Positions 1 through 14,330 are shown, numbered from the stretch's first letter. The stretch: DNA of 64,000 nucleotides from a virus (IMGVR_UViG_3300032308_001355:369-64368), one strand, 5' to 3'. Translations and numbers: made by a program. The notes: generated from the letters alone by a model not told the origin.

Positions 1-25
1 GATGAAACAAGATAGTTGTTCATTT

Positions 26-259
26 TTACCTCATATCCATATTGCGTTTTTGACGGTTTAATAAATCGCTAGCCTGTTCCGATACATTATAACGTCCATA
101 AGATGGTCTTGGACCGTCATACTGACCGTGATGTATTACTCTAAACTCATTTAATCTACTTCGTTTAGCTTTTAATTCTGTTGGCTTTTTCTTAGCATTT
201 GGGTGGCCCTCACCTAGCGCTCGTTGTGCGCGGGTGCGCCCTACTGCTGGGTCATTCAT
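26..259 (-). CDS. small basic hypothetical protein
   Basis: 77 aa ORF, co-oriented with neighbouring minus-strand genes. Confidence 0.5.
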   Translation of the reverse strand: MNDPAVGRTRAQRALGEGHPNAKKKPTELKAKRSRLNEFRVIHHGQYDGPRPSYGRYNVSEQASDLLNRQKRNMDMR

Positions 260-344
260 TTAGGCTCACATGAGCATGGGCATGCTGCTTGATTGCAAAG
301 ACCGTAGTCCATTGTATGGTCGCACTTCTTACAAACATTTTCCA

Positions 345-554
345 TTACTTATCTTCTCTAATAACTGAATCCCAGTGGCGGTCCATCTCATCAGAACTAT
401 CTGTATCTAATTTAATTGGGACGCTCTTTCCAGTGCGCTCTTTAATTACACGGCTTGCGCTTAAATCTAAAACATTATCAAACTGACCTTCGGTGCGCTT
501 ACCTAATCCGCGGTGCGCAGGATGGTTTGGTCCAGGTGTACCCATATCGTCCAT
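345..554 (-). CDS. hypothetical protein
   Basis: 69 aa ORF with GAGGAG RBS upstream. Confidence 0.6.
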   Translation of the reverse strand: MDDMGTPGPNHPAHRGLGKRTEGQFDNVLDLSASRVIKERTGKSVPIKLDTDSSDEMDRHWDSVIREDK

Positions 555-569
555 AGATATTATTCTCCT

Positions 570-797
570 CTATTTTGGTGGAAGTGAAAGCATATAAGCT
601 TTGTACGCCGCCGATAGAAGCGGTATTAAAGTATCTTTTTTCTCGAAGTGGCGCGCCTCAATGTGTTGTAACCATTTAGTAGCATTAAAGGTTCCGTGCG
701 CACAACCATTATTAACGTCAGCCCAGCAGAGGTTGGCAAAATAGCCTATGCGGCTAGATTCATCCATTTGCTCCCAGAGCCATGTTGAGAAGTGCAT
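570..797 (-). CDS. YozE SAM-like domain protein
   Basis: F-x-x-WL...IG.FA....D pattern and helical C-terminus resembling YozE-like proteins. Confidence 0.5.
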   Translation of the reverse strand: MHFSTWLWEQMDESSRIGYFANLCWADVNNGCAHGTFNATKWLQHIEARHFEKKDTLIPLLSAAYKAYMLSLPPK

Positions 798-870
798 GGC
801 AGAAAGTATGCCACTTTGACGAAAAAATTATGGCGCTAACGATTTCTTCAGTACACCATCTTTGCGCTTG

Positions 871-1077
871 TTACTCTGCTCTCCAATGGAGGTAGGAACG
901 GATATATACAATTGCGTAGGCTAGGGCAGAGAAGATAAAGCCATATTGTGCGGTTATTATGGCGTAGGTAATCCATAGTATTTCATTGAATAGTAGGACC
1001 ATCCAGCCCCAGATTGTTTTGCGCCCGACAAAGTAGATGCCAGTTACACCGATTATTGCTAATACCCAGGACCACAT
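871..1077 (-). CDS. PnuC-like small membrane protein
   Basis: three hydrophobic segments, K.IWGW...NEILW..Y.....QYG pattern. Confidence 0.6.
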   Translation of the reverse strand: MWSWVLAIIGVTGIYFVGRKTIWGWMVLLFNEILWITYAIITAQYGFIFSALAYAIVYIRSYLHWRAE

Positions 1078-1413
1078 TTAGCGTCCGTAATCATCTGATA
1101 GGCGTTCGATGTCATCTTCACCAAAGTAAGTTCCTGTTTGGACCTCGGAGAATATCAACGCGCTTGTGCCAATGTTCTCAATGCGGTGGGTCGAACCAGC
1201 TGGAATGTCATAGACCGCCCCTGCAAGGCCGTAAGAGTCCACACCGTCAATGGTGACCTTGGACTCGCCTTCAATAATGAACCAGTGCTCTGAGCGCTTC
1301 TGGTGGCGTTGTAGTGATAAGCGCGAAGATGGATTAACAGTAATTATCTTAATTTTGTAATTATCTGCTTCAGCTAGGGTTTGATAGCTCCCCCATGGGC
1401 GAGACTCACTCAA
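1078..1413 (-). CDS. mannose-6-phosphate isomerase type II cupin (ManC C-terminal-like)
   Basis: RPWGSY, LSLQRHQKRSEHW, HRIEN, EVQTGTYFGEDDIERLSDDYGR signatures. Confidence 0.9.
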   Translation of the reverse strand: MSESRPWGSYQTLAEADNYKIKIITVNPSSRLSLQRHQKRSEHWFIIEGESKVTIDGVDSYGLAGAVYDIPAGSTHRIENIGTSALIFSEVQTGTYFGEDDIERLSDDYGR

Positions 1414-1540
1414 GATTATCGGCCGCCCACTCTTTCCACTCTACATTAAGCTCGGCTATATCAATTGTTCCTTCATAGCCCATTTCGTGTAGATACTCAA
1501 TGAAGTCATCATCTGCTACTAATACTGGTAAATTTTCCAT
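1406..1540 (-). CDS. small acidic hypothetical protein (44 aa, not in ORF track)
   Basis: MENLPVLVADDDFIEYLHEMGYEG...; fills the gap between tRNA and cupin gene. Confidence 0.55.
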   Translation of the reverse strand: MENLPVLVADDDFIEYLHEMGYEGTIDIAELNVEWKEWAADNLE

Positions 1541-1573
1541 AAGCGCATCATAGCAGCTCGTGAGAGCTCATTG

Positions 1574-1644
1574 CTCCCCACCGTGGATTCGAACCACGAT
1601 TCTTGGTGCCAAAAACCAATGTCCTGCCGTTGGACGAATGGGGA
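1574..1644 (-). tRNA. tRNA-Gln(UUG)
   Basis: acceptor TCCCCAT/GTGGGGA, anticodon stem TTGGT/ACCAA with loop TTTTGGC, T-loop GTTCGAATC; CCA not encoded. Confidence 0.93.
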
Positions 1645-1648
1645 TTGT

Positions 1649-1792
1649 TTACTTACAGGAGTTACAGTAGTTACCAACCCGAAGGTTTTCTACCGCAGTC
1701 ACATAGACTTTACCGCAATGTACGCAGGTGACATCGGTCTTGTGAATCTTCCGCTCAGGGGCGCGACGTAGTTCCAATCCAAAGGCAATCAT
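1649..1792 (-). CDS. zinc-ribbon microprotein (47 aa, not in ORF track)
   Basis: MIAFGLELRRAPERKIHKTDVTCVHCGKVY...YCNSCK; two CxxC. Confidence 0.65.
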   Translation of the reverse strand: MIAFGLELRRAPERKIHKTDVTCVHCGKVYVTAVENLRVGNYCNSCK

Positions 1793-1798
1793 AGATTA

Positions 1799-1826
1799 AG
1801 TATATCTTAGGCTACTGCCTTGTCAA
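1799..1826 (-). promoter_or_regulatory. sigma70/SigA-type promoter, leaderless
   Basis: TTGACA-16-TATACT, then 6 nt to the ATG at 1792. Confidence 0.75.
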
Positions 1827-1890
1827 TATAGGCAAATGTTGTCCATGAAGCCTGGTAGGCACCTTGTGGGGGTGGGGCTTTAAGGGTGGG

Positions 1891-1939
1891 GGGTTGTTAT
1901 AAATGAGGCTTGACACTGAGTTGCGTTACCCCCTAGAGT
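1891..1939 (+). promoter_or_regulatory. early promoter 1 with GGGTTGTTATA box
   Basis: GGGTTGTTATAAA-6-TTGACA-18-TAGAGT. Confidence 0.8.
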
Positions 1940-1981
1940 AAGCCTTGTTAGTAACCGCTAACACTTATGAAGGGAAATTAA

Positions 1982-2203
1982 ATGTTAAGTCTAGATGAGG
2001 TCAAGGATAAGTACGGCGAGCAAGCCTTTATTCAGTTGACCGATAACACACCTTGTTCTATGTGTAACGGTACTGTTCACCCTATCTTCGAGCGCGTAGC
2101 CCTTAACGGTTGCGAGCGTTGCGAGCGCGAGAACAGCCCACATGCACCTTCACACTTTCGCTGTAATCATGGTGCGCATTGCACCCGCGATAGTTGCTGG
2201 TAA
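1982..2203 (+). CDS. Cys/His-rich zinc-binding hypothetical protein
   Basis: CxxC x2 plus H/C-rich tail; RBS GAAGGGA. Confidence 0.7.
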   Translation: MLSLDEVKDKYGEQAFIQLTDNTPCSMCNGTVHPIFERVALNGCERCERENSPHAPSHFRCNHGAHCTRDSCW

Positions 2204-2214
2204 GGGGGCGCGAA

Positions 2215-2394
2215 ATGATGTTCTATAACGGGTTCAACCTAATGATTGACCTAATTATCGCAGGACTAGTATTCTACTTTACACGTCGCACTAGTTGGTG
2301 GCAGGGGTACCGCGCAGGTATCGAGGATACTAACGAGTATGCCGAGCGCGCTGGCGATTACTGGCTAGAACAGGAGCGCGAGCGTGAACACTAA
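2215..2394 (+). CDS. small single-pass membrane protein
   Basis: TM segment then GYRAG motif; start moved to the ATG after RBS AAGGGGG. Confidence 0.65.
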   Translation: MMFYNGFNLMIDLIIAGLVFYFTRRTSWWQGYRAGIEDTNEYAERAGDYWLEQEREREH

Positions 2395-2584
2395 GGAAAT
2401 ACGCAACATAATAAGGCTAGCAATAAAGCGCGGATACACCGTAGAAGTACGCAACAACGGACACTACAAGTTCACCGCACCTAGTGGGAAGTTCTTTTTT
2501 ACTAGTAGCACTCCTAGCGATAGGCGCGCACTAGATAACATACTGGCAGACATGAAACGCGCAGAAAAGGAGGATAACAAGTGA
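2384..2584 (+). CDS. HicA-like toxin-fold protein
   Basis: helix-GYTVEVRNNGHYKF..PSG...TPSD pattern typical of phage HicA-like proteins. Confidence 0.65.
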   Translation: MNTKEIRNIIRLAIKRGYTVEVRNNGHYKFTAPSGKFFFTSSTPSDRRALDNILADMKRAEKEDNK

Positions 2585-2814
2585 TAGCAACAATTCATGA
2601 ACGCATTACAAATAATAGGGTTAATAAGTGCATGGCGAGCAAACCTCACTCTTCAACAGGCGGACGGCTTATCTGTGAACTACTTCATGGTACGCGCCCG
2701 AAGTACCGCACCTCATACTTTATCTTCGACATGGTTCTAGAGATGATTACCAAGCCTAACAAGGCGCGCCAATACTGGAACGAAATGATTACCACGCTAC
2801 GGGATAAGCATTAA
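2581..2814 (+). CDS. hypothetical protein
   Basis: RBS AGGAGG, GTGA overlap with upstream gene. Confidence 0.6.
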   Translation: MIATIHERITNNRVNKCMASKPHSSTGGRLICELLHGTRPKYRTSYFIFDMVLEMITKPNKARQYWNEMITTLRDKH

Positions 2815-2843
2815 CAACCTCAACCCTTCCGAGGTTGTTACTA

Positions 2844-2880
2844 GGGGAGCCAGTTGGTTACTGGCTCCCCGCTTTACTTT
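2844..2880 (+). terminator. intrinsic terminator
   Basis: GGGGAGCCAGT-loop-ACTGGCTCCCC followed by T-rich tail. Confidence 0.75.
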
Positions 2881-2965
2881 ACTCCCTTATACGGCATTGG
2901 GTTAGGCATCAACACAAACATTAGAACGGCATAGGGACTGGCAAAAGAACCCCAAGAAAAAGAGA

Positions 2966-3013
2966 GGGTTGTTATAAACGAGACTAGACACGCAAGGTTG
3001 ATAAGGTTATTGT
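2966..3013 (+). promoter_or_regulatory. early promoter 2 with box
   Basis: GGGTTGTTATAAA-6-TAGACA-17-TATTGT. Confidence 0.75.
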
Positions 3014-3047
3014 TTAATTAGTGGAAATACCACAAGGAAAGGGAAAC

Positions 3048-3188
3048 ATGGAAACATGTGAAATGTGCGGTTCAGTAGGGGCAGTGACCTACCTACCTTA
3101 CCAGTACGATAACGGCGAGCAATTCCGCGCCCATGTATGCGGAGTATGCGCTATTCAACACGCTATCCTGATAGGGGCTAAGAAATGA
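3048..3188 (+). CDS. zinc-finger microprotein (46 aa, not in ORF track)
   Basis: METCEMCG...HVCGVC; RBS GAAAGGGA. Confidence 0.65.
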   Translation: METCEMCGSVGAVTYLPYQYDNGEQFRAHVCGVCAIQHAILIGAKK

Positions 3189-3352
3189 CCACTATCCACG
3201 CTGGCGACCACACCACGGATTGTGGAATATGCGAGCAGAACGCGCGCATTAAACAGAACATGGAGGATAGTCTCGATGATGTATTAGAATCGGGCGATTC
3301 TCAAGCTTTTCAAGATATATTCGAGGACCGCGACCCATTCGAATTTATCTAG
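3185..3352 (+). CDS. acidic microprotein (55 aa, not in ORF track)
   Basis: MTTIHAGDHTTDCGICEQ...FEDRDPFEFI; ATGA overlap. Confidence 0.6.
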   Translation: MTTIHAGDHTTDCGICEQNARIKQNMEDSLDDVLESGDSQAFQDIFEDRDPFEFI

Positions 3353-3357
3353 GAGGG

Positions 3358-3380
3358 AGCCCCGAAAGGGGCTTTCTTTC
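3358..3380 (+). terminator. intrinsic terminator
   Basis: AGCCCC-GAAA-GGGGCT-TTCTTT. Confidence 0.8.
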
Positions 3381-3479
3381 TATTCCCCTATAGGTGAGAA
3401 TGGGGAGGTGGGTCAACACAAACATTCGGCATTAGGGTATTAGGCAAACGAGCCCACGAACGAACAAGAGAGCGCGTGA

Positions 3480-3527
3480 GGGTTGTTATAAATGGGGCTT
3501 GACACGATTGCTTTATAATAGTTAAAT
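3480..3527 (+). promoter_or_regulatory. early promoter 3 with box
   Basis: GGGTTGTTATAAA-6-TTGACA; -10 ambiguous. Confidence 0.65.
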
Positions 3528-3567
3528 AGGACTTACAACGAACAGCCTACCGAAAGGGGCAAAAGAA

Positions 3568-3741
3568 ATGACAAGGAAGCATTACCGCGCAACGGCAGAA
3601 ATTCTGTCTATCTCTAAAAACGCAATGGCACCCGAGGAATACTCTTTCCTCGTTGATAAATTCGCTTACATGTTTAAATTGGATAACCCACGCTTTAACC
3701 GCGATAAATTCCGCGAGGCTTGCGGGGTGGCTAATGTCTAG
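3568..3741 (+). CDS. small phage protein with DNPRF motif (57 aa, not in ORF track)
   Basis: MTRKHYRATAEIL...DNPRFNRDKFREAC; RBS GAAAGGGG. Confidence 0.75.
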   Translation: MTRKHYRATAEILSISKNAMAPEEYSFLVDKFAYMFKLDNPRFNRDKFREACGVANV

Positions 3742-3865
3742 TTACTTCCCGCCCGTAAGTGGCATTCTTCAATCCGTCCCTAATCCTGTTAAAACTATCA
3801 AGTGCTCCGAGTGCTTTAAGCCACTAGGGCAAGACGATGCCTACGGGCACGATTGCGAGGTGTAA
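3734..3865 (+). CDS. zinc-binding microprotein
   Basis: CSEC...HDCE; start moved to the overlapping ATG. Confidence 0.6.
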   Translation: MSSYFPPVSGILQSVPNPVKTIKCSECFKPLGQDDAYGHDCEV

Positions 3866-4074
3866 CATGTGAGCGGACTTGCTCCGAAAGGCTCCGAAAG
3901 GAGGCGTCCTACAGCTGACTGTAGGTGTGGGCTCACACATCATGGGACCTTGGCCGCCAGATTTACCTGGCGGCCTTGCTATTTCTGGAGATGTTTGTGT
4001 TGGTGGCTGATGTAGTTTAATTGGAAAAGGCATTGGAACAATCTTTGATTGTTCCAACACAAACATGCGGCGAG

Positions 4075-4107
4075 TTATCCACAGGTTTATCCACAGCCTG
4101 TGGACAG
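4075..4107. promoter_or_regulatory. cluster of three DnaA boxes
   Basis: TTATCCACA at 4075 and 4087 (perfect), inverted TGTGGACAG at 4099. Confidence 0.8.
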
Positions 4108-4108
4108 A

Positions 4109-4156
4109 GGGTTGTTATAAAAGATACTAGGGCTATTGGGGAAGAGATGTTAGTCT
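4109..4156 (+). promoter_or_regulatory. early promoter 4 with box
   Basis: GGGTTGTTATAAA-6-weak -35-17-extended -10 TGnTAGTCT. Confidence 0.6.
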
Positions 4157-4202
4157 TATCCCGTAAGCGCAACAAGGCGCTTGCATAAGAGAAGGGTAAG
4201 TC

Positions 4203-5207
4203 ATGGCTCATAATCTTGAGACCTACGGCTCACAGGTAGCGTTCGCGTTACGTGGCGAGCCTGCATGGCATGGGCTCGCGGACACATTGTTCGACGAATC
4301 CGCACATGTTACTACGCAAGACATGCTAGATTCTGCTCACCTCTCCAATTGGAATGTTTCATTGGAGCAGGTACAAGTACCAGCAGGCTATCGCACAGTA
4401 TCGGATGCGTTTATGGTTACACGCACAAATCCATTTGACAATGGAACAGATGTTCTCGCAATGGTCGGTGACCGTTACAAGGTATATCAGAATGAGGAAT
4501 TGTTCTCATTCGGAGATAACCTTACAGATGGTGGCGCGACATGGGAATCTGCAGGCTCAATCAAGAATGGGCGCCAAGTATTCGGCTCCCTATCGGTACC
4601 ACGTGAGTTTATTCTAGACCCACAAGGTATTGCAGATAAGACTAAGACTTATCTACTCGTTACCTCTTCACACGATGGTAGCGCTAGCATCCAAGCGTGT
4701 ATCACTCCCGTTCGCGTAGTCTGCCAAAACACTCTCAACATGGCTCTACAGGGCACAAAGCAGACTTTCAAAGTCCGCCACACTCAAAAAGCAGATGGAC
4801 GTGTTGCAGAAGCACAGCGCGTACTAGGCTTAACAAATACTCACATGGATGAATTCGAGAAGATGGCGCAAGAATTATTTGCCACTTCAATCACCAATGC
4901 ACACTTCGACAAGATAGTTGAGGCTCTTTATCCTGCTCCAGTAGATGGCGCTAAGGGCGCAATCACTATGCACTCAAACAAGGTAGACCTTATTAAGGCT
5001 ATCTACCTAAACTCCCCTACTCAAACAGGTATCACAGGTACCGCATGGGGCGCGCTCAATGCACTAACTGAGCGCATAGATTACTTCCGCAATCCTCGCG
5101 GGGGTAATATTGAAGGTGTAGCATCCGCTGCATCAGGTTTCGAGGCAGGCGTTAATGCCGAGAAGGCTCGCATACTCTCAGCAGTACGCGAACTAGCAGT
5201 AGCATAG
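4203..5207 (+). CDS. DUF932 / phage-plasmid-like protein (TIGR03299-like)
   Basis: PAWHGL, Y..YQN, ESAGS, SHDGS, TPVRVVCQNTL, GTAWGALNA motifs. Confidence 0.9.
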   Translation: MAHNLETYGSQVAFALRGEPAWHGLADTLFDESAHVTTQDMLDSAHLSNWNVSLEQVQVPAGYRTVSDAFMVTRTNPFDNGTDVLAMVGDRYKVYQNEELFSFGDNLTDGGATWESAGSIKNGRQVFGSLSVPREFILDPQGIADKTKTYLLVTSSHDGSASIQACITPVRVVCQNTLNMALQGTKQTFKVRHTQKADGRVAEAQRVLGLTNTHMDEFEKMAQELFATSITNAHFDKIVEALYPAPVDGAKGAITMHSNKVDLIKAIYLNSPTQTGITGTAWGALNALTERIDYFRNPRGGNIEGVASAASGFEAGVNAEKARILSAVRELAVA

Positions 5208-5213
5208 GCGGAC

Positions 5214-5235
5214 GGGGGCGGAGCAATCCGCCCCC
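5214..5235 (+). terminator. terminator-like hairpin
   Basis: GGGGGCGGA-GCAA-TCCGCCCCC just after the stop; weak U tail. Confidence 0.65.
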
Positions 5236-5364
5236 TAAGTCGCACTATATCAGCCGCGGGCAAAAGTTTGTGTTGGTGGGTGGCTGGCGTAGTGGCGTTT
5301 CTTAATATAAGTTATAAAGGCTTGGACAAATGTTTCACATTTGTCCAACACAAACATCGGGCGA

Positions 5365-5437
5365 GGGTTGTTATAAAAGAAATTGACAAAGGGTTGTTAT
5401 AAAGAGTGTTGACAGGGCAAAAGAGTGAGAGTAAGTT
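5365..5437 (+). promoter_or_regulatory. tandem box+TTGACA units, early promoter 5
   Basis: GGGTTGTTATAAA-5-TTGACA twice (5365, 5391); second followed by 17 nt and TAAGTT. Confidence 0.8.
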
Positions 5438-5484
5438 ACGCATTAGTTGAGAGTAACAAGGCTTTCAACGACGAAGGGAACAAA

Positions 5485-5967
5485 GTGTTCACAACCCCCG
5501 ACGGTGTTGCACTATACACCGAAGAAGATATGGCTGAGGCGCGCAATACCGCGACTACTCAGTTTAATGTAGGCGCCGAATACGGCGTACGCAGTACCAC
5601 CAACGACCTACGGACTAAGGCTATTAACTGGTTCCGTGGCGAAGTTCGCTCAGGGTCTATGACCCAAGAAGATGCCCTAGGTATCTACAACGGTCTAGCC
5701 GAAGCACTTGGCTGGGCAACACTTGATAGTATTACTAGCAAGTACACCGTAGTAGTTTCTTTCAACGGCAACATTGTCGCTGAATTCGAGGACGTTGAGG
5801 CTGATGATTCAGACTCTGCTGAGGACGAAGTTCGTGGCAATATGGAGGTAGAGGACGTAGAAATCTCCTTTATTATCTCCTACAACAACCAAACAGCCCG
5901 CGAAAGCGCCAACATGACTTGGGACTTCGATGAGGAGTTCGAGTACGAGGCAACAGAACAGGATTAG
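5485..5967 (+). CDS. hypothetical protein with very acidic C-terminus
   Basis: GTG start after RBS GAAGGGAA (the track start overlaps the promoter). Confidence 0.8.
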   Translation: MFTTPDGVALYTEEDMAEARNTATTQFNVGAEYGVRSTTNDLRTKAINWFRGEVRSGSMTQEDALGIYNGLAEALGWATLDSITSKYTVVVSFNGNIVAEFEDVEADDSDSAEDEVRGNMEVEDVEISFIISYNNQTARESANMTWDFDEEFEYEATEQD

Positions 5968-6114
5968 TAGGTTCTCCTAGCAAGGGCAACCCCCTCTTGT
6001 CTAGGACTTACTAGCAGACGACCTACGATAAGGCTAGGAAGTCTTGGTAACGTCGGGTTGGGGCTCATTTCTGGTGAGCCCCACCTCTTAACAACTACAA
6101 GAAAGGCAATAAAA

Positions 6115-6441
6115 ATGGATACAAAGACATACAACCACCGCGTTGCAGTACTAGAAACGCGCCAAATTATTATGGATATTGAAGCACCGAACGATATAGA
6201 TAGTATTAAGGAAGTAGCGCTTAGCGCATACTTTCAAGGTGAAGGCGACCAAGAAGAAGGACTTTCCTACCCTGCTAGCCTTGTTATCTACCCATGGCTT
6301 GAAGAAGGTCAAACTCCGCCAGTTGGAAGCGCATACCCTAACCCTACTGAACTCCCCATTACACCCCTTGATTTCAAAGGCACACCTGACCACGAAGATG
6401 ACGACTCACTCAGCGCGACAATCTATAACTTCCCCAAGTAA
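6115..6441 (+). CDS. acidic hypothetical protein
   Basis: ATG after RBS GAAAGG. Confidence 0.75.
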   Translation: MDTKTYNHRVAVLETRQIIMDIEAPNDIDSIKEVALSAYFQGEGDQEEGLSYPASLVIYPWLEEGQTPPVGSAYPNPTELPITPLDFKGTPDHEDDDSLSATIYNFPK

Positions 6442-6455
6442 CTAAGATTACTAAG

Positions 6456-6492
6456 TAGCCCTATTAGCCCACGTGGTTAGTAGGGCTATTTT
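6456..6492 (+). terminator. intrinsic terminator
   Basis: TAGCCCTATTAGCC/GGTTAGTAGGGCTA stem plus TTTT. Confidence 0.7.
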
Positions 6493-6625
6493 GCGAGCGC
6501 GGACGGCGCGAAAATGTTTGTGTTGACCCACCCACCCAATATATAGATATATATACCCTTTACTTGCTTTGCTTATTCAGCAAATCAGATTGGATAAATG
6601 GAACATTTATCCAACACAAACTCTA

Positions 6626-6672
6626 GGGTTGTTATAATCCGACTTGACTTACTAAAGAGTAACCACTAAGGT
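6626..6672 (+). promoter_or_regulatory. early promoter 6 with box
   Basis: GGGTTGTTATAAT-5-TTGACT-17-TAAGGT. Confidence 0.75.
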
Positions 6673-6873
6673 GCGCGCCTCTCGGAGAGAGTGAGAGCCA
6701 CGTCACACTAGGCTACTGCCGAGAGGTTGCTAGGGCTATCTACGGGTAAGGGCAGACTATTGACTCCTTGCAGGGTTGTTATATATGCTAATTGCGAGAG
6801 AGGAGAGAGAGTGAGAGCATTGGACACTATGCCCGTGTATGACCCCCTATTGGTATCTATATAGGTATCCATA

Positions 6874-6921
6874 GGGTTGTTATATTAAGGATTGGTCGTT
6901 AAGCGCGACTTCGGATACAGT
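6874..6921 (+). promoter_or_regulatory. early promoter 7 with box
   Basis: GGGTTGTTATATT-5-TTGGTC-18-TACAGT. Confidence 0.6.
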
Positions 6922-6960
6922 ACGACCATAACCAACAAGGAAAGAGAAGGAATACAAGAT

Positions 6961-7155
6961 ATGACTAAAGATGAAGCACAGATGATTGCTAAGGCTATCT
7001 CTAACGTAAAAAGCACTACCAAGATAGTTTCAATTCCCTACGACGTACCAAGCGCACTAGCCCTATTAACCCTTGCTATTGCAGACACGCTAGAGAAAAT
7101 AACCCCTGACTTTAACTATTCAGCCTTTCTAGACGAGTGTGAGGACAACGCATGA
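6961..7155 (+). CDS. paralog of 3568..3741 protein
   Basis: MTK...IA.AI...P.FN...F...C pattern; RBS GAAGGA. Confidence 0.7.
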   Translation: MTKDEAQMIAKAISNVKSTTKIVSIPYDVPSALALLTLAIADTLEKITPDFNYSAFLDECEDNA

Positions 7156-7457
7156 TTAAGACACACGCAGAGTTTAAGCGAGCCTTATCTACTAAAGGTA
7201 CTCGTTTGACTACACTAGCCCTAGCAACAGGTATGAAGGAAGGTCGTATTAAGTTAGGCGCGACCCGTCATATCCGCAAGGCTGATACCACAGGCGTATA
7301 TCTAGTCACAGATGAGGAGTTAGATAAGCCTACTAACGGCAGTTTCTTAGGTTTTGATAAGGCTAGTGATTGGAAGTTTGAGGGCGATATTGCCACTAAT
7401 ACTAAGTTTGGATACTCATATCGGGTAGTCCTACCAACAACAGAAGAGGGTAAATAA
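7152..7457 (+). CDS. hypothetical protein
   Basis: 101 aa, ATGA overlap. Confidence 0.75.
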   Translation: MIKTHAEFKRALSTKGTRLTTLALATGMKEGRIKLGATRHIRKADTTGVYLVTDEELDKPTNGSFLGFDKASDWKFEGDIATNTKFGYSYRVVLPTTEEGK

Positions 7458-7458
7458 G

Positions 7459-7995
7459 ATGAGTAAGCGCGAGATGTACGACGGAGTTATTGCTGAGGTC
7501 GAGTACGACAAGGCACTAATTCAGATAGATAATGCTTCATATATAGATGTAGTACGGGAAGGTAGCGTTAAGTTAGCCCTACCTGAAAATGGTGTATCGC
7601 TAAAAAGCGCGACCAGCGTGTTCGCCGACTACGACGTTCGCGACGCACTACTTGTTAAGACTATGGAAGATGAGGAGTTTGCCTTCGTCCTTATCAACAA
7701 GATTGGTTCAACCGTAAAGTCTAAGGTAGAAGATAAGACTATTACCCAAGATGATGTAGAAGCCCTAGCAACGGCAGGGCAGGTACTTGTTATGTGGGAA
7801 CAGTTTGGTGGCGCGCTCGTAATGACCGCACTACTTGATAACGTTATTGAGGAGTACAACCTCTCTACCCCTAGCCTTGCTGATATTACTAAGCGCCTAT
7901 TAGAGGTAAAGGATTACTTCCCGTTTGCTGAAACCCGTAAGGGGTCAGTTGCAGACCTTTCAGGCAAATTAGAAGAAGGGCTAAGTAATGAATAA
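7459..7995 (+). CDS. helical hypothetical protein (possibly DUF4192-like), paralog A
   Basis: DVRDALL and DDVEALA...PSLA; shares a block with the next gene. Confidence 0.7.
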   Translation: MSKREMYDGVIAEVEYDKALIQIDNASYIDVVREGSVKLALPENGVSLKSATSVFADYDVRDALLVKTMEDEEFAFVLINKIGSTVKSKVEDKTITQDDVEALATAGQVLVMWEQFGGALVMTALLDNVIEEYNLSTPSLADITKRLLEVKDYFPFAETRKGSVADLSGKLEEGLSNE

Positions 7996-8536
7996 AGCAG
8001 AGCGCCTTTACCGCTTCGGGGAGATTATGAGTACGGTAGGACTATTACCCGATATTACTATGGAAGATGATGTCGCTGAGGCTGAGGCTGAAAGCGCAAA
8101 AGAGTGGGTTCTACCTAATCTTACTAAGAACCTATCCGATAGTGGGCTAAGTCAAGCAATTCTATGCCAAAGCCTTCGTGAAGATGTAGAGTTTAAGTTT
8201 AAGTTAGTAGCACTATTAACTAACAGCGCGACTATGGCTCTCAATAATTGTATAGAGAACGATACTAACCCTACTGATGATGATGTAGAAGCCTTAGCAA
8301 TTAGCGCAAATATCTTATGGAGTAGTGGTCAGACTAAGGGCTTGTACCAAATGCTAGGGTTACTAAGTCATATATGCTCACAATTCGATAGGAAGATACC
8401 TGAGTTAGCAACAGCCTTTATTCGCTCTAATGACGGAATAGATACCTTTGGACGGCTAGACCCACTAGAACTACTAGCAGGTAATGTTACGAAAGATGAT
8501 GTTCGTAACTTACGCGCCGACCAAGACGGGGAGTAA
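7988..8536 (+). CDS. helical hypothetical protein, paralog B
   Basis: DDVEALA...PELA block shared with the upstream gene. Confidence 0.7.
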   Translation: MNKAERLYRFGEIMSTVGLLPDITMEDDVAEAEAESAKEWVLPNLTKNLSDSGLSQAILCQSLREDVEFKFKLVALLTNSATMALNNCIENDTNPTDDDVEALAISANILWSSGQTKGLYQMLGLLSHICSQFDRKIPELATAFIRSNDGIDTFGRLDPLELLAGNVTKDDVRNLRADQDGE

Positions 8537-8617
8537 TCCCTATTAGGACTACTAGGCTAACCGAGCCAATTAAGCCGTAATTGCATAGTAGTCCTACCTA
8601 ATAACTAAATAGAGAAT

Positions 8618-8626
8618 TGTGGATAA
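8618..8626 (-). promoter_or_regulatory. single perfect DnaA box
   Basis: TGTGGATAA = reverse complement of TTATCCACA, intergenic. Confidence 0.5.
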
Positions 8627-8864
8627 CCCTATTAAGTAAGGATAGGTGTAGGCGCAACTTCACGACCTGAGGGTATCGGACTAGAGGTAATAGCGATATT
8701 ACAGTTACGACTAGGGGTGTTGCTGAAATACTAGGACTACTTAAACTGCCTTACTGCCATTGTGCGCACAATACAGACCGTACTTAATAGTGCCGTTGTA
8801 CCACGATAGGTAGTAGCCCTAGTAGTTACTTCAATTACTTACTAGGGTTACTTCCTTAAATCTA

Positions 8865-8912
8865 GGGTTGTTATATATAAAACTTGCACTTACTAATTAA
8901 ATACGTTTAACT
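8865..8912 (+). promoter_or_regulatory. early promoter 8 with box
   Basis: GGGTTGTTATATA-6-TTGCAC-17-TTAACT. Confidence 0.65.
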
Positions 8913-8946
8913 AAACCAAAACCAAATGACGAGAAAGGTCAAACAG

Positions 8947-10374
8947 ATGTCCATAGCACTATTCGTAGAAAGTAACGCAGGTGAGTTAGATAACTTACCT
9001 GCAACCGCACAGACTTTATTATTCGCACACGATAACACTATTAAAACTTACCACCGTATTAGTAATGGTAGTAAGGGTAAGGGTCAAGTATGGAAGAGCG
9101 TTGATGATATTAGCGCGCTACCTATTAACCCTATCAACCGCGCACCCGTAGGTGTCTTGCTTACCGCGCGCGACCTAGCACTAGCCGACTTAGATAGTAT
9201 TACTAATATATCTATCAAGGCTATCTATGCTAGTGAGAACGCTGAGGCTATTGCAGAACCTATTGCTCACCGTGAAATGGTCGCTAATCTTACTTCGCGC
9301 CTTATCTATGGCGACCAAGCACTAGCAGATTATGTAACTGATAAGCGTAGTAGCACAGGCACAGCGCAAGGAATTGTTATTAACCCTATTAACGTAGAGG
9401 TTACTGAGCCTATTGCAGAGGTAACCAACACAAACGCCACCGTATCTGAGCCAGTAGTTACTAGCACTATTAAGTTGCCTGATATGGCGCTTAATATGAT
9501 TACAGTACCCGACCCTAAATGGGCTAAAGAATACGTTAATCGTCGTATTGCAGGGCGCACAGATTGGGATATTTATGACCAAGCACTAGCCGACGGAGAT
9601 AATATCCTTATCGAAGGTGGCGCAGGTAGTGGTAAGACTATTAGCGTTCAGAGTTATGCAAGTGCGCGTGGCTATCGTTACTTTAACGTATCAAATAATA
9701 ATGGTATTGACCCTTCACAGTTATTCGGTCGTTGGATACCTAAGTCAGACGGTCAGGGCTATATGTGGCAGGACGGCGCAGTAACTCTACTCGTTCGTCA
9801 TGGTGGAGTGTTGTTACTTAATGAAGTCAATTTCCTACCTGCTAGGGTTAGTACCGTACTCTTCTCACTTCTCGATTATCGTCGTGAGATACAGTTGCTA
9901 GAAAATGGTGGCGAAGTAGTTAAGGCGCACCCTAACTTACTAATCGTAGCCGATATGAACTATGGCTATAAAGGTACGCAAGAACTTAATCAAGCGTTCA
10001 GCGACCGCTTCAATATCAAGTTAGAGTTTCCTTATGACCGCACTATTGAAAATAAGGTTATTGGCTCTAAGGCTATCCTTAATCTTGCAGACCAGTTACG
10101 CGACCAGTACGACAAAGAAGAAATTAGTAGCCCTATCTCTACTCGTTCGTTAGTAAGCCTAGTAAAGAACGCACGTCGCTTCGGTACTGAGTTTGCTATC
10201 GGCTCGTTCGTAAATGGCTTCAACAAAGATGAACGCAACGGTGTTCGCCTTGCTTGTGAAACACACAAAGACAATATCGAACAGGACTTAGGATTAGCGC
10301 CTACAAAAGCGCACCCAGTATCGCCTGATGAAGTAGAACAGTACGCTAATTCTATCAACGCATGGGTTAAGTAA
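8947..10374 (+). CDS. MoxR/CbbQ/CobS-like AAA+ ATPase
   Basis: Walker A GGAGSGKT, Walker B variant LLLNEVN, MN.GY.GT.ELN.AF.DRF, STRSL; RBS GAGAAAGG. Confidence 0.9.
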   Translation: MSIALFVESNAGELDNLPATAQTLLFAHDNTIKTYHRISNGSKGKGQVWKSVDDISALPINPINRAPVGVLLTARDLALADLDSITNISIKAIYASENAEAIAEPIAHREMVANLTSRLIYGDQALADYVTDKRSSTGTAQGIVINPINVEVTEPIAEVTNTNATVSEPVVTSTIKLPDMALNMITVPDPKWAKEYVNRRIAGRTDWDIYDQALADGDNILIEGGAGSGKTISVQSYASARGYRYFNVSNNNGIDPSQLFGRWIPKSDGQGYMWQDGAVTLLVRHGGVLLLNEVNFLPARVSTVLFSLLDYRREIQLLENGGEVVKAHPNLLIVADMNYGYKGTQELNQAFSDRFNIKLEFPYDRTIENKVIGSKAILNLADQLRDQYDKEEISSPISTRSLVSLVKNARRFGTEFAIGSFVNGFNKDERNGVRLACETHKDNIEQDLGLAPTKAHPVSPDEVEQYANSINAWVK

Positions 10375-10376
10375 TC

Positions 10377-12296
10377 ATGCCACGTCCTCGTACTCACTAC
10401 TTAGATGAGGTTAGTAGTCTTATTACAGACTATCGTGTAGATGAAAACGGTAATTATGTAGCCATGAGCGCCGACGGCTTTACACGCACAGACCTTATAG
10501 AACAGGTTGCTGAGGAGAAGTCACGCTTAGACGGTATTAGTAGTGTGTATCAAACCGCAGATAGGATTATTAGTGGTGACGATATTAACGTTACCGTAGT
10601 GCGTAATCCTGAAATGGATACTACTGCTACTAATAATGGGCGTGAGATTATCTTCAACGCTAATCTTATTGAGGACTTAGATACCGATACTATCGTATCT
10701 ATGAACGGTACTAACTACCATGAACTAGCGCATATTCTATTCTCTCCACGCGCAGGTTCAGCACTAGGTCAGTATGTAACTAATAATAAGATGAAGCGCG
10801 CCTTCAATATGCTAGAGGAGTCGCGTATTGAAAAGATGTTAGTCGCTAAGTACCCTGCTACTCGTCTATTCCTAGAAGCAACCGTCCTAGACTATGCACT
10901 AAAAGATAGTCCTGATAAGTGGGGCGATATGTTTCCAGTTATTACAGGTCGTCGCTACTTAGATGTAGAACTACGGCAAATGATTGCTGATAAGTTTATT
11001 AACTCTTACGGCTCAGAGGTAGCACAGACAGTTAGTAGGATTGTTAATGAGTATGGCTCGTTGATATTCCCTACCGACTTTACGCGTGGTATGGAGTTAA
11101 TCGCTGAGTACTCGCAGTTAGTAGGATTAGATACTGAACCGCAAGGTCAGATACCTAACGGCAACGGTGACGGTCATAGTCATAATGAACGCAACGTATT
11201 ACAAAAGGGTCGCCCTGCTTCCACTAAAGAACAGGAACGCTTGCAGGGTAAGTCAGGTAGTGGAGAAGGCGAAAACCTTAACGGCGATAATGTTATCAAC
11301 GGTGAAAAAGGTAACGGTAATGGAACTACCCCTGCATGGGGCGTAGGTGGAGAAGGCATTGAATACACAGGTGAGCAAACGTCTTACACAAACTCTGATG
11401 AAGATATTGCTCGCGCACTAACGCAACGCCTAAAAGATATTCACGCTGATAGCCGTATTAAGAACGAAGTCCGTGAAGTCCGTAAGGCTATTACAGGTAA
11501 TGATGAGGTGCGCTCTACTCTAAAGAATAGTAAGCACTTTGACCTAGAAGTAAATACTAACGCTAGTAACTTTGCTCGTCGTTTCGGTGTGGAGTTAGAA
11601 CGCATGGTGCGTGATAGCGACCCTCATTGGGATAAGTTTCTACCTAGTGGTAAGTTAAATGTAAGTCGTACCATGACCCCTGATGTTAATGCTATTGGAC
11701 AGATGTTCGACGTATGGGATACAGGTAACGAAAACACAGACATAGAGGCAGTAATCCTATTAGATAACTCAGGCTCTATGTCGTACCACATGACCGAAGT
11801 ATGCGAGAAGGCATGGATTATTAAACGTGGTATTGAAAATATAGACGGTAGCGTTACCGTGTATAACTTCCATAGTTATAGCGAGTTGCTATACGACAAA
11901 AAGGAAAAGGCTAAGCCACGCCAGCACCGTAGCGTACACGCCACAGGCTCTACTAATCCTATGACGGCTCTAGTAGAGGCAGAACGCACACTAACTACTA
12001 CTGATAAGCATATTAAGATGTTGTTTATTGTTACCGACGGTGAGTGGGAGAACACAGAGGAGTGCGATAGTATTATTAAGCGCCTTAACGATAAGGGCGT
12101 ACTCACTTGTGTAGTATTCATGGGAGATTACAAGCAGGTGCATGAACTTATGGCTGAGGCTAAGCGTGGTAATGAACAAGCACGTCACTACCTACAACGC
12201 CTACGTCATAGTGCTAAGGTATTCAAGGCAGTTGCTAATCCTAAAGACGTGTTGGAGTTGGCAGTTGATATTGTTAAGAGTAAGGTAGGGAAGTAA
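10377..12296 (+). CDS. CobT-like VWA domain protein with N-terminal HExxH motif
   Basis: HELAH, FNMLEESRIE, SGKL, MIDAS DNSGS, TDG. Confidence 0.9.
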   Translation: MPRPRTHYLDEVSSLITDYRVDENGNYVAMSADGFTRTDLIEQVAEEKSRLDGISSVYQTADRIISGDDINVTVVRNPEMDTTATNNGREIIFNANLIEDLDTDTIVSMNGTNYHELAHILFSPRAGSALGQYVTNNKMKRAFNMLEESRIEKMLVAKYPATRLFLEATVLDYALKDSPDKWGDMFPVITGRRYLDVELRQMIADKFINSYGSEVAQTVSRIVNEYGSLIFPTDFTRGMELIAEYSQLVGLDTEPQGQIPNGNGDGHSHNERNVLQKGRPASTKEQERLQGKSGSGEGENLNGDNVINGEKGNGNGTTPAWGVGGEGIEYTGEQTSYTNSDEDIARALTQRLKDIHADSRIKNEVREVRKAITGNDEVRSTLKNSKHFDLEVNTNASNFARRFGVELERMVRDSDPHWDKFLPSGKLNVSRTMTPDVNAIGQMFDVWDTGNENTDIEAVILLDNSGSMSYHMTEVCEKAWIIKRGIENIDGSVTVYNFHSYSELLYDKKEKAKPRQHRSVHATGSTNPMTALVEAERTLTTTDKHIKMLFIVTDGEWENTEECDSIIKRLNDKGVLTCVVFMGDYKQVHELMAEAKRGNEQARHYLQRLRHSAKVFKAVANPKDVLELAVDIVKSKVGK

Positions 12297-12422
12297 ATGG
12301 ATAATCTATTATGCGCTAACTGCGGATATGAGTACGACGAAGTAGATGATGTTGGATTGTGCCAAACGTGTCGTAAAGCCTATGATAAAGGATTACAGAG
12401 GGGTTATGAAATAAATGGATAA
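12297..12422 (+). CDS. zinc-ribbon microprotein (41 aa, not in ORF track)
   Basis: MDNLLCANCG...LCQTCRKAYDKG. Confidence 0.6.
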   Translation: MDNLLCANCGYEYDEVDDVGLCQTCRKAYDKGLQRGYEING

Positions 12423-12648
12423 AGAACTAGAGAAAGCCTACGATAACTACGGCAAAGACGGGAATATAACCGTTGAACAGACCGTTACAGACTATGCAGT
12501 ACTTATGAAAGATATTCTAATTAAAATGCAAGATAGCGTAGAGATGTTAGAGGCTACCGTTATTCAAGTACCACACTTAATAAACCTAATCAAAACAGCG
12601 AACGATTACCTCTTCTATCTAGAAGATAACCGTCGCGTAATCCTATAA
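12415..12648 (+). CDS. hypothetical protein
   Basis: 77 aa helical ORF in operon. Confidence 0.65.
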   Translation: MDKELEKAYDNYGKDGNITVEQTVTDYAVLMKDILIKMQDSVEMLEATVIQVPHLINLIKTANDYLFYLEDNRRVIL

Positions 12649-12666
12649 GAGAAAGAACGATATAAA

Positions 12667-13284
12667 ATGGGTCTAGATATGTACCTATATGCAGAGAAAT
12701 ATATAAGCGGATACGACTATGAAACTATCAACGGAGAACTAACCCGTAGGGATAACCTTATGTACGATAAGGTTATTGAGAGTGCAGGGCTAACTAAACT
12801 ACCCAGCACAGAGTATGGAAGCACAACAGTTACTAAATGCGTGGGTTATTGGCGCAAGGCAAACGCTATTCACGGTTGGATTGTACGCAACCTAGCCGAA
12901 GGTGTAGATGAGTGCCAGCGTATAAATATGAGTCGTGAGGACTTAATATCACTACGCGACTCATGCGTTAAGGAACTTAATAATCGTAGTAACGCACTTC
13001 CTATTAAAGAACCTAAGTCAATATCTATTTCAGACACAGGTGATGAGAGCCTTGTAGTATCCAGTATTGCTAATGCTATTAAGCAAGAAGCACTAAAGAA
13101 GCATACCGAAGTAGTACTAGCAGACCCGTTAGAGTTAGCGCCAACCGCAGGTTTCTTCTTTGGTAACACAGATAAAGATGAGTACTATTATTCAGATATT
13201 GAACACACAGTTGATATGCTGAACTCTCTTCTTGCAGGAACGCAAGATGAGGCTTATAGTTTCTACTATCAAGCCAGTTGGTAA
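12667..13284 (+). CDS. conserved phage protein (MGLDMY family)
   Basis: MGLDMYL, YWRKANAIHGW, GFFFG, YYQASW. Confidence 0.85.
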   Translation: MGLDMYLYAEKYISGYDYETINGELTRRDNLMYDKVIESAGLTKLPSTEYGSTTVTKCVGYWRKANAIHGWIVRNLAEGVDECQRINMSREDLISLRDSCVKELNNRSNALPIKEPKSISISDTGDESLVVSSIANAIKQEALKKHTEVVLADPLELAPTAGFFFGNTDKDEYYYSDIEHTVDMLNSLLAGTQDEAYSFYYQASW

Positions 13285-13435
13285 AAAACTAAATAAAAGT
13301 AGAGAGTAATCTAGTAGGGTTGGTCAGTTTCTATTCTGCCAAGTACCGCTAATGTCTGCTACCACAGAGAACACAGCCGTCAATGCCAATAGTACGCAGT
13401 ACCTATTAGATTACTCCTACAATAACTACTAGAGA

Positions 13436-13702
13436 TTGGAATACTATATGTTTCGTGTTATGGCAACGCTTGTGCATGATGAGTTAGAACCTGCTTATAC
13501 TTATTCAGAGGAAGTATTTGAGAGTAAAGCGGAAGCAGAGAGTTGGATTAACAGCAAAGAAGGCTATCTATTCGCCCAAGATGTAATGATTGGCGTAGAT
13601 GTCCATGAGTATCTAGACGGTTATTTATTAGAGAGCCTAACCGCAGAAGAAACCCCACTTAGTAAGGTTGGTATCTCCCCTAGCGTAACCTTTGGAGAGT
13701 AA
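13436..13702 (+). CDS. acidic hypothetical protein
   Basis: 88 aa ORF in early block. Confidence 0.6.
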   Translation: MEYYMFRVMATLVHDELEPAYTYSEEVFESKAEAESWINSKEGYLFAQDVMIGVDVHEYLDGYLLESLTAEETPLSKVGISPSVTFGE

Positions 13703-13783
13703 TGAGTTCTTGTACTTGGTGCGGAGATACTATGAAAGAGGGCTTATGGGAGAGCCATAAGTGCGTAGAGCCTGTGGAGAATA

Positions 13784-13978
13784 ATGAAAACTGAAATAGA
13801 GATACGAGAAGAGATTGAAGCCATACTTAAAGATATGGCGGAGTCGGGCGACGACTACCAATTTAAGTCATACCTAAACACGGTACTTAATACACTTTAT
13901 TGGGTACTGGGTAGCCTATCTATGGACGAGTTGATAACCGTAACCGAAGAAGAGGCTAACTTTTGGGGAAGCGACTAG
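13784..13978 (+). CDS. hypothetical protein
   Basis: MKTE.EIRE...TL.WVLG; RBS GGAG. Confidence 0.7.
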   Translation: MKTEIEIREEIEAILKDMAESGDDYQFKSYLNTVLNTLYWVLGSLSMDELITVTEEEANFWGSD

Positions 13979-14028
13979 CGTTCCAACACAAACCGCAGTA
14001 TATTTAACCCACTATCGAAAGGAAAAAA

Positions 14029-14316
14029 ATGAGTAAAAAAGTAAATGCCTTGTTTAATGGCGAACTACGCAAGAATAAGGAAAAAGGTGGCGCTTGGGTT
14101 GCTGAGTATGTAGTTACTCGCGCTGACTTTGATAAGCCTGTAAAGGCTGAGTACTCTGCATGGTCTAATGCCTCTGCTGGTAAGCGTTGGTTGAAGGCTA
14201 TGGTGTTGGCAAATACTCCTAAGAAAAGTATTAAAATGGTAGCCACCTCAGATGTAGATGAAAAAGGCAAGCCAGTACTATTTAACGGTGATGTTGTATT
14301 TAAGATTGAACTGTAA
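14029..14316 (+). CDS. basic hypothetical protein
   Basis: RBS GAAAGGA, 95 aa. Confidence 0.75.
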   Translation: MSKKVNALFNGELRKNKEKGGAWVAEYVVTRADFDKPVKAEYSAWSNASAGKRWLKAMVLANTPKKSIKMVATSDVDEKGKPVLFNGDVVFKIEL

Positions 14317-14330
14317 AGAGAGGAAAGATT

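Follow-up and report, generated by a model that had tools for sequence, protein, structure and literature searches.

The stretch of DNA analysed here, 64,000 nucleotides of the virus record IMGVR_UViG_3300032308_001355 (hereafter the window), carries three intergenic copies of a palindromic element whose inverted arms, GTTTGTGTTG on the left and CAACACAAAC on the right, are invariant, while the sequence between them is different in every copy, yet self-complementary. Comparison with related contigs suggests that the element is confined to a single clade of uncultivated phages that encode WhiB and have contractile tails, and that it constitutes a previously undescribed family. The explanation that we favour, at somewhat short of even chances, is that it is a boundary element able to form a DNA hairpin or cruciform, that its arms are read by some factor, and that it acts as a cassette joint comparable to the PeSL of phage T4 or the attC site of integrons while being a member of neither. 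The concept is akin to known kinds, namely the composite regulatory joints of plastic phage regions and structure-defined cassette sites, and the signature is unusually sharp.

The left arms start at positions 3993, 5266 and 6516 of the window and the right arms at 4055, 5346 and 6612; elements 1 and 2 share an 11-bp core, GTTTGTGTTGG / CCAACACAAAC. Element 1 (3991..4066; like the other two, assigned to no strand) has perfect inverted arms of 13 bp (3991-4003 and 4054-4066), and its interior is G/T-rich first and A/T-rich after. Element 2 (5266..5355) has 11-bp arms (5266-5276 and 5345-5355). Element 3 (6516..6621), which represents a variant termed class B, consists of the left arm, a ACCCACCCACCC tract (6526-6537), an A/T-rich stretch, a minor hairpin and a main hairpin that adjoins the right arm. 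The main hairpins, at 4033-4057 (also adjoining the right arm), 5322-5348 (loop TTC) and 6590-6614 (loop GAA), have perfect stems of 11, 12 and 11 bp, respectively, and 3-nt loops. Folded as DNA, they reach z scores of -5.5, -6.0 and -6.05, and none of 200 shuffled sequences folds as well; for the whole elements, z ranges from -4.0 to -5.2 on either strand (-5.2, -4.0 and -4.7 for elements 1, 2 and 3). A preliminary description of the window had listed the three composite elements with their arms and hairpins, together with solo right arms at 2910, 3414 and 13984. All of these coordinates proved right, the solo arms being exact copies.

To delimit the family, we used the pattern GTTTGTGTTG-N45-75-CAACACAAAC, with exact arms demanded. 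Viral contigs gave 78 matching loci, usually more than one to a contig, and metagenome contigs at least 164, of which 80 were retrieved. The pooled loci comprise 146 distinct standard elements and three everted ones, 59-142 bp long. Pairing extends beyond the arms in 109 of the 146, and 66 are long palindromes in which perfect pairing continues for at least 8 bp past them; another 20 carry a C- or G-tract beside one arm, as does element 3, many of them with a small hairpin adjoining the other arm, and the remaining 60 include chance matches. At least a few dozen uncultivated contigs carry members of the family, with 3-7 pairs per genome clustered in an early region of 5-10 kb. In prokaryote genomes (596 Gb), by contrast, the pattern gave 29 single matches, as against about 17 expected by chance with uniform base composition; 26 of these show no pairing past the arms, and none of the 29 has a DnaA-like box nearby. 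Since this is about the chance level, the element belongs to one phage clade and not to its hosts. A covariance model built from hairpin and arm retrieved the early-region copies already known, and returned no strong copy with altered arms and none in the phage genome G006. The preliminary description had not recognised the element as one already described. This agrees with literature searches by 10-mer sequence and by words, which found no such element (the sequence matches listed looked like unrelated uses in other organisms), and with Rfam covariance models run against positions 1-15000 of the window (E-value at most 1), which yielded only a tRNA gene (1574-1644, - strand; RF00005, 51.5 bits), which lies immediately before the early array and has the opposite orientation. 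Among described concepts, the T4 PeSL comes closest.

The arms are conserved as exact sequence. In five early regions, 54 arms are exact and five have one mismatch, the latter being about the chance level; over redundant loci the counts are 609 and 69. Arms are exact across genomes whose shared proteins are 26-89% identical, in the neighbourhood of coding DNA that is about 70% identical, and solo arms without a partner are exact as well. Pairing alone would permit the arms to covary, yet they do not, and hence something presumably reads their sequence. Loci found via the DUF932 protein rather than via the motif had exact arms on both sides of the gene in three of four cases; the fourth locus is from an unrelated phage, with only a few genes in common and a single copy of the 10-mer. 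G006 (L202), which was tried as an arm-less outgroup in the search for a co-occurring protein, proved to be an unrelated phage with few common genes, and profiling gave nothing.

Within the window, the 10-mer arm occurs in 13 exact copies. Allowing up to one mismatch, there are 17 matches, whereas shuffled sequences average 5.73 and in 100 shuffles never attain 17. Apart from the paired arms, there is a solo right arm at 2910..2919 (+), upstream of the promoter box at 2966, and a solo unit at 3402..3423 (+), in which the G-rich tract GGGGAGGTGGGT precedes the arm CAACACAAAC; the latter unit is the reverse-complement form of the class B end, that is, left arm plus ACCCACCC. A further solo 10-mer at 13984..13993 (+) directly follows a stop codon, and because the same letters open an ORF (open reading frame) in relatives (ATGCCAACACAAACC), this copy probably belongs to a different, coding-linked context. 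Exact 10-mers are also found at 9426, 16049 and 57978 (+) and at 49920 (-), mostly within coding sequence. Tracts of the (ACCC)3 / (GGGT)3 type adjoin one arm of class B and solo units at many loci (6526-6537 and 3402-3413 in the window); in some relatives they contain four G runs, a quadruplex-type motif, and their orientation relative to transcription varies from copy to copy.

The exactness of solo arms upstream of promoter boxes, the conservation of the arms next to a free interior, and the over-representation of the 10-mer elsewhere in the genomes (4-9 solo copies versus 0-1 of the reversed control) could also mean that the arms are paired duplex operators. They would then bind a global regulator of early promoters, much as do the C1 operators of P1 or the stoperators of mycobacteriophages, and the interior would be a self-perpetuating by-product. 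We consider this unlikely. Spacing to the promoter is variable, at least some of the scattered solo copies are explained by conserved coding sequence, no regulator was identified among the ORFs searched, and extended pairing, in 109 of the 146 elements past the arms and in 66 by at least 8 bp, is too frequent for an accident.

The hairpins adjoining the right arm comprise 18 distinct sequences, all with perfect stems of 6-14 bp closed by TTGG/CCAA. Their triloops (n=11) are nine GNA, one TNC and one TTT. GNA triloops are known from very stable DNA hairpins and are typical of the single-stranded DNA hairpins at replication origins and in N4 promoters. In an alignment of 13 hairpins, 97.8% of the cells are paired and 16 cells have changed on both sides, and the covariation score is reached by none of 500 shuffles; the two unpaired cells and the single U-G cell trace to one misaligned row. 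Orthologues of element 3 likewise show double changes that preserve the stem, for example TTGGATAAATG versus TTGGACATATG. The covariation first noted among the three copies of the window is thereby borne out and extends to relatives.

Pairing of this kind may operate at the level of DNA or of RNA. In the latter case, read-through transcripts would fold into a hairpin serving as a processing site for an RNase III-like enzyme, a stabiliser or an antitermination signal, as in the early region of T7. Stems long enough for double-strand-specific RNases and a position between cistrons would suit such a role. Moreover, in minimum-free-energy (MFE) folds of 38 oriented elements, the sense strand gives the better fold in 23 cases and the poorer one in 9 (mean -2.5 kcal/mol), with more G·U pairs. 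We have withdrawn the sense-strand G·U bias, however, as an artefact of G/T-rich unpaired stretches: at true stem positions, the isolated mismatches inside well-paired stems of 27 sequence clusters are five G·T in the sense direction, three G·T in the antisense direction and ten of other kinds. The element is also preceded by strong terminator-like hairpins with T runs and followed by the next promoter, centre-symmetric palindromes and solo arms have no RNA rationale, and there is no match in Rfam. An RNA element is therefore quite improbable. The stems are nearly pure Watson-Crick, unlike those of RNA under selection, which points to DNA rather than RNA, and we take DNA to be the level at which the structure is important or, at the least, is formed. 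As to the DNA cruciform switch that had been envisaged for these copies, the DNA-level structure stands, with near-perfect Watson-Crick stems and no G·T excess, whereas the function of a switch is hypothetical.

Small perfect DNA hairpins with a 3-nt, GNA-type loop beside a conserved sequence, in about three early-region copies, are reminiscent of the promoters of the N4 virion RNA polymerase. In contrast to the latter, stems are 9-14 bp here as compared with 5-7 bp, and sigma-70-like promoters lie downstream. An N4-type hairpin promoter was rejected in view of the lack of a giant virion RNA polymerase (a domain of more than 1000 aa), the largest ORF encoding 856 aa in the window and 949 aa (a collagen-like protein) in the complete relative G004.

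In relatives, the element is part of a module of strict order. The stop codon is followed by a G+C-rich terminator hairpin with a T run, the left arm directly after it, the palindrome and the right arm; 3' of the right arm there is a spacer of 2-53 nt, then a DnaA-like box, (C)CTGTGGATAAC(T), and then promoter-like hexamers. The former sequence we take to be the consensus DnaA box, with flanks as in the strong E. coli box. Written out, the module reads intrinsic terminator, (T)GTTTGTGTTGG-palindrome-CCAACACAAAC(A), DnaA-box-like CCTGTGGATAAC (in the window, GGGTTGTTATAAA), promoter. Among 40 oriented elements, which were oriented, and hence selected, by the DnaA-like box itself, the left arm has T at -1 in 32 and G at +1 in 37, and the right arm has C at -1 in all 40; because C precedes the right arm and G follows the left arm so regularly, the conserved core is 11 bp. 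Without box-based selection, a DnaA-like box is found within 70 nt of 63 of the 146 distinct elements. The terminators upstream of the elements are of the RNA type, with GNRA loops in 11 of 17 tetraloops. In the window, the intrinsic-terminator-like hairpin of the cassette upstream of element 1 is at 3952..3975 (+), and its equivalents are at 2844-2870, 3358-3373, 5214-5235 and 6453-6491. The element hairpins themselves do not have the features of intrinsic terminators, being followed by CACAAAC and no T run. The position between a terminator-like hairpin and the next promoter, already remarked upon in the window, thus holds, with hairpins upstream and a promoter-associated box downstream.

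That box, GGGTTGTTATAAA at 4109..4121 (+) in the case of element 1, is followed after 5-6 nt by a TTGACA-like hexamer. The form GGGTTGTTATA(A/T)(A/T) has ten exact copies, all on the + strand between 1891 and 8875 (starts 1891, 2966, 3480, 4109, 5365, 5391, 6626, 6773, 6874 and 8865), each with a TTGACA-like hexamer 5-6 nt to its 3' side and a TANNNT hexamer 17 nt beyond that; a promoter scan of the window alone was not above chance (25 sites versus a shuffle mean of 26.2). In most modules of the window GGGTTGTTATAAA takes the position of the DnaA-like box, and relatives have CCTGTGGATAAC or GTTAT-N6-GTTAT there; accordingly, the box upstream of the promoter differs between lineages and the arms do not. 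A 58-bp patch starting from a right arm (2909-2966) illustrates this point: it is 98% identical to the relative G003, as compared with about 70% for coding DNA, and it stops exactly where the window has GGGTTGTTATAAA and G003 has CCTGTGGATAAC. A scan of viral contigs for AGGGTTGTTATAAA gave at least 119 loci; among the 80 matches listed, it occurs singly at each locus and on no contig in common with the element-bearing loci. This promoter box is, as far as the scan indicates, particular to the lineage of the window.

The DnaA-like boxes raise the possibility of a replication, priming or DNA-entry signal, in which host DnaA bound at the box would act on the unwinding-prone palindrome as an origin or primosome-loading site, or in which DNA entry would be arrested, as proposed for T5. 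Indeed, the box, which resembles a high-affinity DnaA site, stands 2-53 nt from the right arm in the 40 box-selected elements and within 70 nt in the 63 unselected ones, and GNA triloops would be in place at an origin. Among its replication proteins the phage has DnaB-, DnaC- and DnaG-like ones; the search of the ORFs of the window and of G004 recognised no initiator. Within the window, only element 1 keeps DnaA-like boxes, namely three sites (TTATCCACA twice and an inverted copy) at 4075..4107 (+), between the element and its promoter box. In this cluster, 33 bp (4072-4104) are 100% identical to a stretch in a non-coding region of about 1.5 kb in Streptomyces phage Faust, and the matches at the equivalent places in phages Moab, Sham and Patelgo overlie no annotated feature; this patch was the sole match in a nucleotide search of cultured phages with the window. 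The stretch is also present on many unrelated contigs in four metagenome runs. The cluster may mimic the host origin or titrate DnaA.

The first-step-transfer region of T5 combines palindromes and inverted repeats with eight DnaA boxes (10.1101/866236). There, as here, non-coding inverted repeats and palindromes accompany consensus DnaA boxes in an early region of a virulent phage and are better conserved than the neighbouring ORFs, whereas T5 has a few large non-coding regions, in which the spacer is constant at 52 bp and the boxes are paired and lie within the repeats (10.1101/866236). Here, each cassette boundary has a small unit of its own, whose box lies outside the palindrome, and two-step injection is not known for this phage. 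The T5 model is itself a proposal. In addition, 3-7 copies per genome are interleaved with genes, the position of the box is mostly occupied by GGGTTGTTATAAA in the window, the geometry is flipped in one complete relative (see below), and GC skew follows the direction of transcription, with no origin signal in the window. The adjacent DnaA-box-like motif keeps the replication or injection option open, although we judge it unlikely.

Comparisons among relatives place the ends of rearrangements at the arms. Of 19 orthologous element pairs, recognised by 30-nt flanks at least 70% identical, 17 have the same orientation, one is flipped and one is replaced. In the flipped pair, the interior is reverse-complemented between the arms and the 120-nt flanks read identically on each side; in the replaced pair, unrelated palindromes of 78 bp and 89 bp occupy the space between the same arms, and the 150-nt flanks are near-identical. 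Furthermore, two genomes whose flanks give 991 matches and one mismatch are distinguished by a 114-bp deletion; the missing segment is a complete class B element, beginning with the second base of its left arm and ending 8 nt beyond its right arm, so that the deletion ends coincide with the arms to within 1 nt (left) and 7-8 nt (right). An empty-site search over 178 loci gave no deletion beyond this one. Contigs of four sequencing runs, which cannot show rare variants, contained no flip or excision of the window's own copies; the source run carries the stretch in one piece, and the joints listed were from other organisms at 85% likeness. Read from these genome comparisons, the deletion at the stem base and the inversion between the arms indicate that the two halves of the element pair in vivo often enough to leave such traces.

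The genes between the elements vary as well. Gene families in these positions differ among six genomes: family F10, for example, lies between two elements in G003 and downstream of F7 in the window, G001 and G004, and extra single-gene cassettes are found between DUF932 and F4 in G002, G003 and G004. Between the early region of G004 and the complete relative G007, DUF932 is the only gene in common. The preliminary description had put forward a recombination site for gene cassettes, and had pointed to rearrangement endpoints at the element and to gene content between copies as the observations that would bear on it. Both speak for a cassette boundary, with deletion, flip and replacement between near-identical genomes (one each) ending at the arms and content varying among the six genomes; dedicated site-specific recombination, on the other hand, did not find support, since no integrase, resolvase or transposase (Y1/HUH and DDE types included) was found among 90 ORFs of the window searched with PHROGs and 120 ORFs of G004 searched with Pfam. 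Pfam searches of 21 + 26 window ORFs gave no integrase family either.

The same observations bear on the idea of selfish mobile DNA, such as a miniature inverted-repeat transposable element (MITE), a REPIN, an IS200-type palindrome or an attC-like site moved by a transposase or recombinase. The element is a discrete unit with invariant terminal inverted repeats, it is present in one copy per cassette in a one-directional array, its presence or absence is bounded by the arms, as is inversion, and its length of 59-142 bp is near the range of attC sites. Nevertheless, we hold mobility of this kind to be very unlikely. No target-site duplication was seen at the element flanks, no integrase, resolvase or transposase was found among the ORFs searched, prokaryote genomes are not above chance, positions are orthologous across diverged genomes, the attC cores are unmatched, and the cassettes have their own promoters. 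Moreover, each copy has an interior of its own, so that the interiors do not derive from a master element. With REP/REPIN sequences and MITEs, the element shares the extragenic palindromic form, a size of up to about 100 bp, conserved inverted ends and a frequent position right behind terminators; in those families the copies have their interiors in common and are moved by RAYT or transposase, whereas here the interiors are unique and no such enzyme was found. A MITE or REPIN was rejected for these reasons, that is, unique interiors, no duplication, no transposase and chance-level occurrence in prokaryotes.

The likeness to attC is closer. Integron attC sites are 57-141 bp long, with the core sites RYYYAAC (5') and GTTRRRY (3'). 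As with attC, there is one site per cassette in a one-directional array, length is variable within a similar range, cassette content varies, and only the inverted ends are conserved while the interior is variable and self-complementary, so that structure rather than sequence is recognised there. However, stems are near-perfect here, whereas those of attC are marked by extrahelical bases, the carrier is a lytic-type phage, and the cassettes possess their own promoter boxes and terminators. An integron attC site in the strict sense was rejected, there being no integrase and the arms GTTTGTGTTGG ... CCAACACAAAC fitting neither core.

In T4-type phages, the PeSL (promoter-early stem-loop) is described as a terminator stem-loop plus a sigma-70-like promoter only (PMC4122927; PMC2839356), and PeSLs are thought to be points of genetic exchange (PMC4122927). 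PeSLs resemble the present modules in being short terminator/promoter units between small non-essential early genes in plastic regions, with many repeats in one orientation (PMC2839356, PMC4122927), and in being linked to insertions, deletions and replacements between close relatives (PMC4122927). Indeed, terminator-like hairpins and -35/-10-like hexamers flank each element, which is the PeSL combination of terminator and early promoter. In contrast to PeSLs, an extra palindrome of 59-142 bp with invariant 11-bp ends, and a DnaA-box-like motif, are situated here between terminator and promoter. PeSLs belong to T4-like myoviruses and the present lineage is WhiB-encoding and actinophage-like, and its elements are not known to give mini-circles.

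Under the boundary-element explanation, the 11-bp arms GTTTGTGTTGG / CCAACACAAAC would be read as sequence by a putative factor, either as duplex or at the base of an extruded hairpin. The interior would be free in sequence; since it is self-complementary, either strand can form a hairpin and the duplex a cruciform. Lying in mid-module, the palindrome would separate neighbouring early transcription units, which are single early-gene cassettes, and its arms would be the preferred joint at which DNA inverts, is lost, or swaps between co-infecting relatives, thereby shuffling the early cassettes. Exchange may proceed by the general recombination of the phage itself, as for PeSLs, rather than by an integrase, as for attC. 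The arm-reading factor, cruciform extrusion in vivo and a benefit to the phage are parts of this scheme that we infer. It is tempting to speculate further that the phages possess an integrase-independent system of cassette exchange, in which a dedicated protein, for example a junction- or hairpin-cutting nuclease encoded by one of the numerous core genes without a name, recognises the arms on the extruded hairpin or cruciform and nicks or breaks the DNA there, and RecA/UvsX-type machinery inverts, excises or replaces what lies between; this more specific proposal seems to us improbable.

Several points weigh against the boundary-element explanation. Deletion, flip and replacement are each represented by a single event, and long palindromes are generally prone to such events, which therefore show hairpin formation and recombination and not purpose; one phage lacks one copy, so that single copies are dispensable. 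Template switching at quasi-palindromes can invert spacers and copy changes between arms. It may thus make the stems mechanically, and perfect stems and covariation are accordingly evidence of hairpin formation and no proof of selection for structure. The distance from right arm to promoter box varies between 14 and 66 nt in the window, and that to the DnaA-like box between 2 and 53 nt in relatives, unlike that of a classical operator or activator site. In G007, which is complete, the arms are everted (CAACACAAAC-palindrome-GTTTGTGTTG) and the DnaA-like boxes flipped; hence there is no fixed geometry with promoter or junction. Demanding exact arms in the family search biases towards invariance, an objection answered in part by the loci found through DUF932 and by the mismatch counts. 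Neither a DNA-binding domain nor an arm-reading protein was identified among 26 early ORFs searched with Pfam, or with PHROGs among the window ORFs. Finally, all relatives are uncultivated contigs, known from sequence alone.

The early regions of virulent phages carry fast-changing genes for host takeover and counter-defence, whose shuffling is poorly understood outside T4. The present family would be a second, independent example with a sharper signature, consisting of invariant 11-bp ends and a free, self-complementary interior. Conservation of the arms spans genomes whose proteins have diverged to about 50% identity, and inversion, loss and replacement have been caught between near-identical genomes. 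In practical terms, the arms provide a sequence handle for the early regions and cassette boundaries of an uncultivated, actinophage-like clade, and arm duplex or hairpin could be used as bait for the protein that reads them. A dedicated enzyme, should there be one, would be a novel DNA tool specific for both structure and sequence; if there is an integrase-independent exchange system, the early region would serve the phages as their equivalent of an integron, with genes for host takeover and anti-defence as its content.

The window corresponds to bases 369-64368 of a 64,368-bp record and has a G+C content of 41.7%. Small genes on the + strand occupy 1.9-14.5 kb, and the remainder is mostly on the - strand. 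It encodes a contractile tail (sheath, tube and baseplate), replication proteins (DnaB-, DnaC- and DnaG-like proteins, a family A DNA polymerase and a RecA/UvsX-like recombinase) and nucleases (RuvC-like and other junction resolvases, Cas4-like and SbcD-like proteins), as well as WhiB, a class II ribonucleotide reductase and a tRNA-guanine-transglycosylase-like protein. Terminase, portal and capsid genes were not found in the 64-kb record; complete relatives, which are 88-96 kb long, have these head genes, and the record is therefore an incomplete genome. WhiB points to an actinobacterial host, and among cultured phages Streptomyces myoviruses come nearest, their sheath protein being about 38% identical; WhiB and an SPP1-type portal also set the lineage apart from the T4-like myoviruses. 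The complete relative G004 encodes RecA, endonuclease VII, HNH endonucleases and an SbcD-like phosphoesterase.

The DUF932 gene (4203-5207, +), with elements on both sides, is the sole early gene common to all element-bearing genomes examined. DUF932 is also encoded by the unrelated phage G006 and by phages of Streptomyces, Mycobacterium and other actinobacteria (563 records), and a cassette beside it in one relative encodes DUF3846. An early gene pair at 8926-12296 (+) codes for an ATPase of the AAA_5 type (MoxR/CobS-like) and, after it, a protein of 639 aa that has a weak VWA domain. Orthologues of element 3 stand upstream of this pair in relatives, a class B element being always present there in those that have it. 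The tRNA-guanine transglycosylase homologue (16924-18384, -) is assigned by PHROG to 'queuine tRNA-ribosyltransferase'; phage genes of this type often mark 7-deazaguanine DNA modification, and the arm sequence holds TGT twice. More intergenic inverted repeats with other arms are found at 8808-8856, 6845-6876, 13304-13416 and 8544-8596. Several of them share TAGTAGGGCTA / TAGCCCTACTA-like words, and they may represent a second family of terminator-type palindromes.

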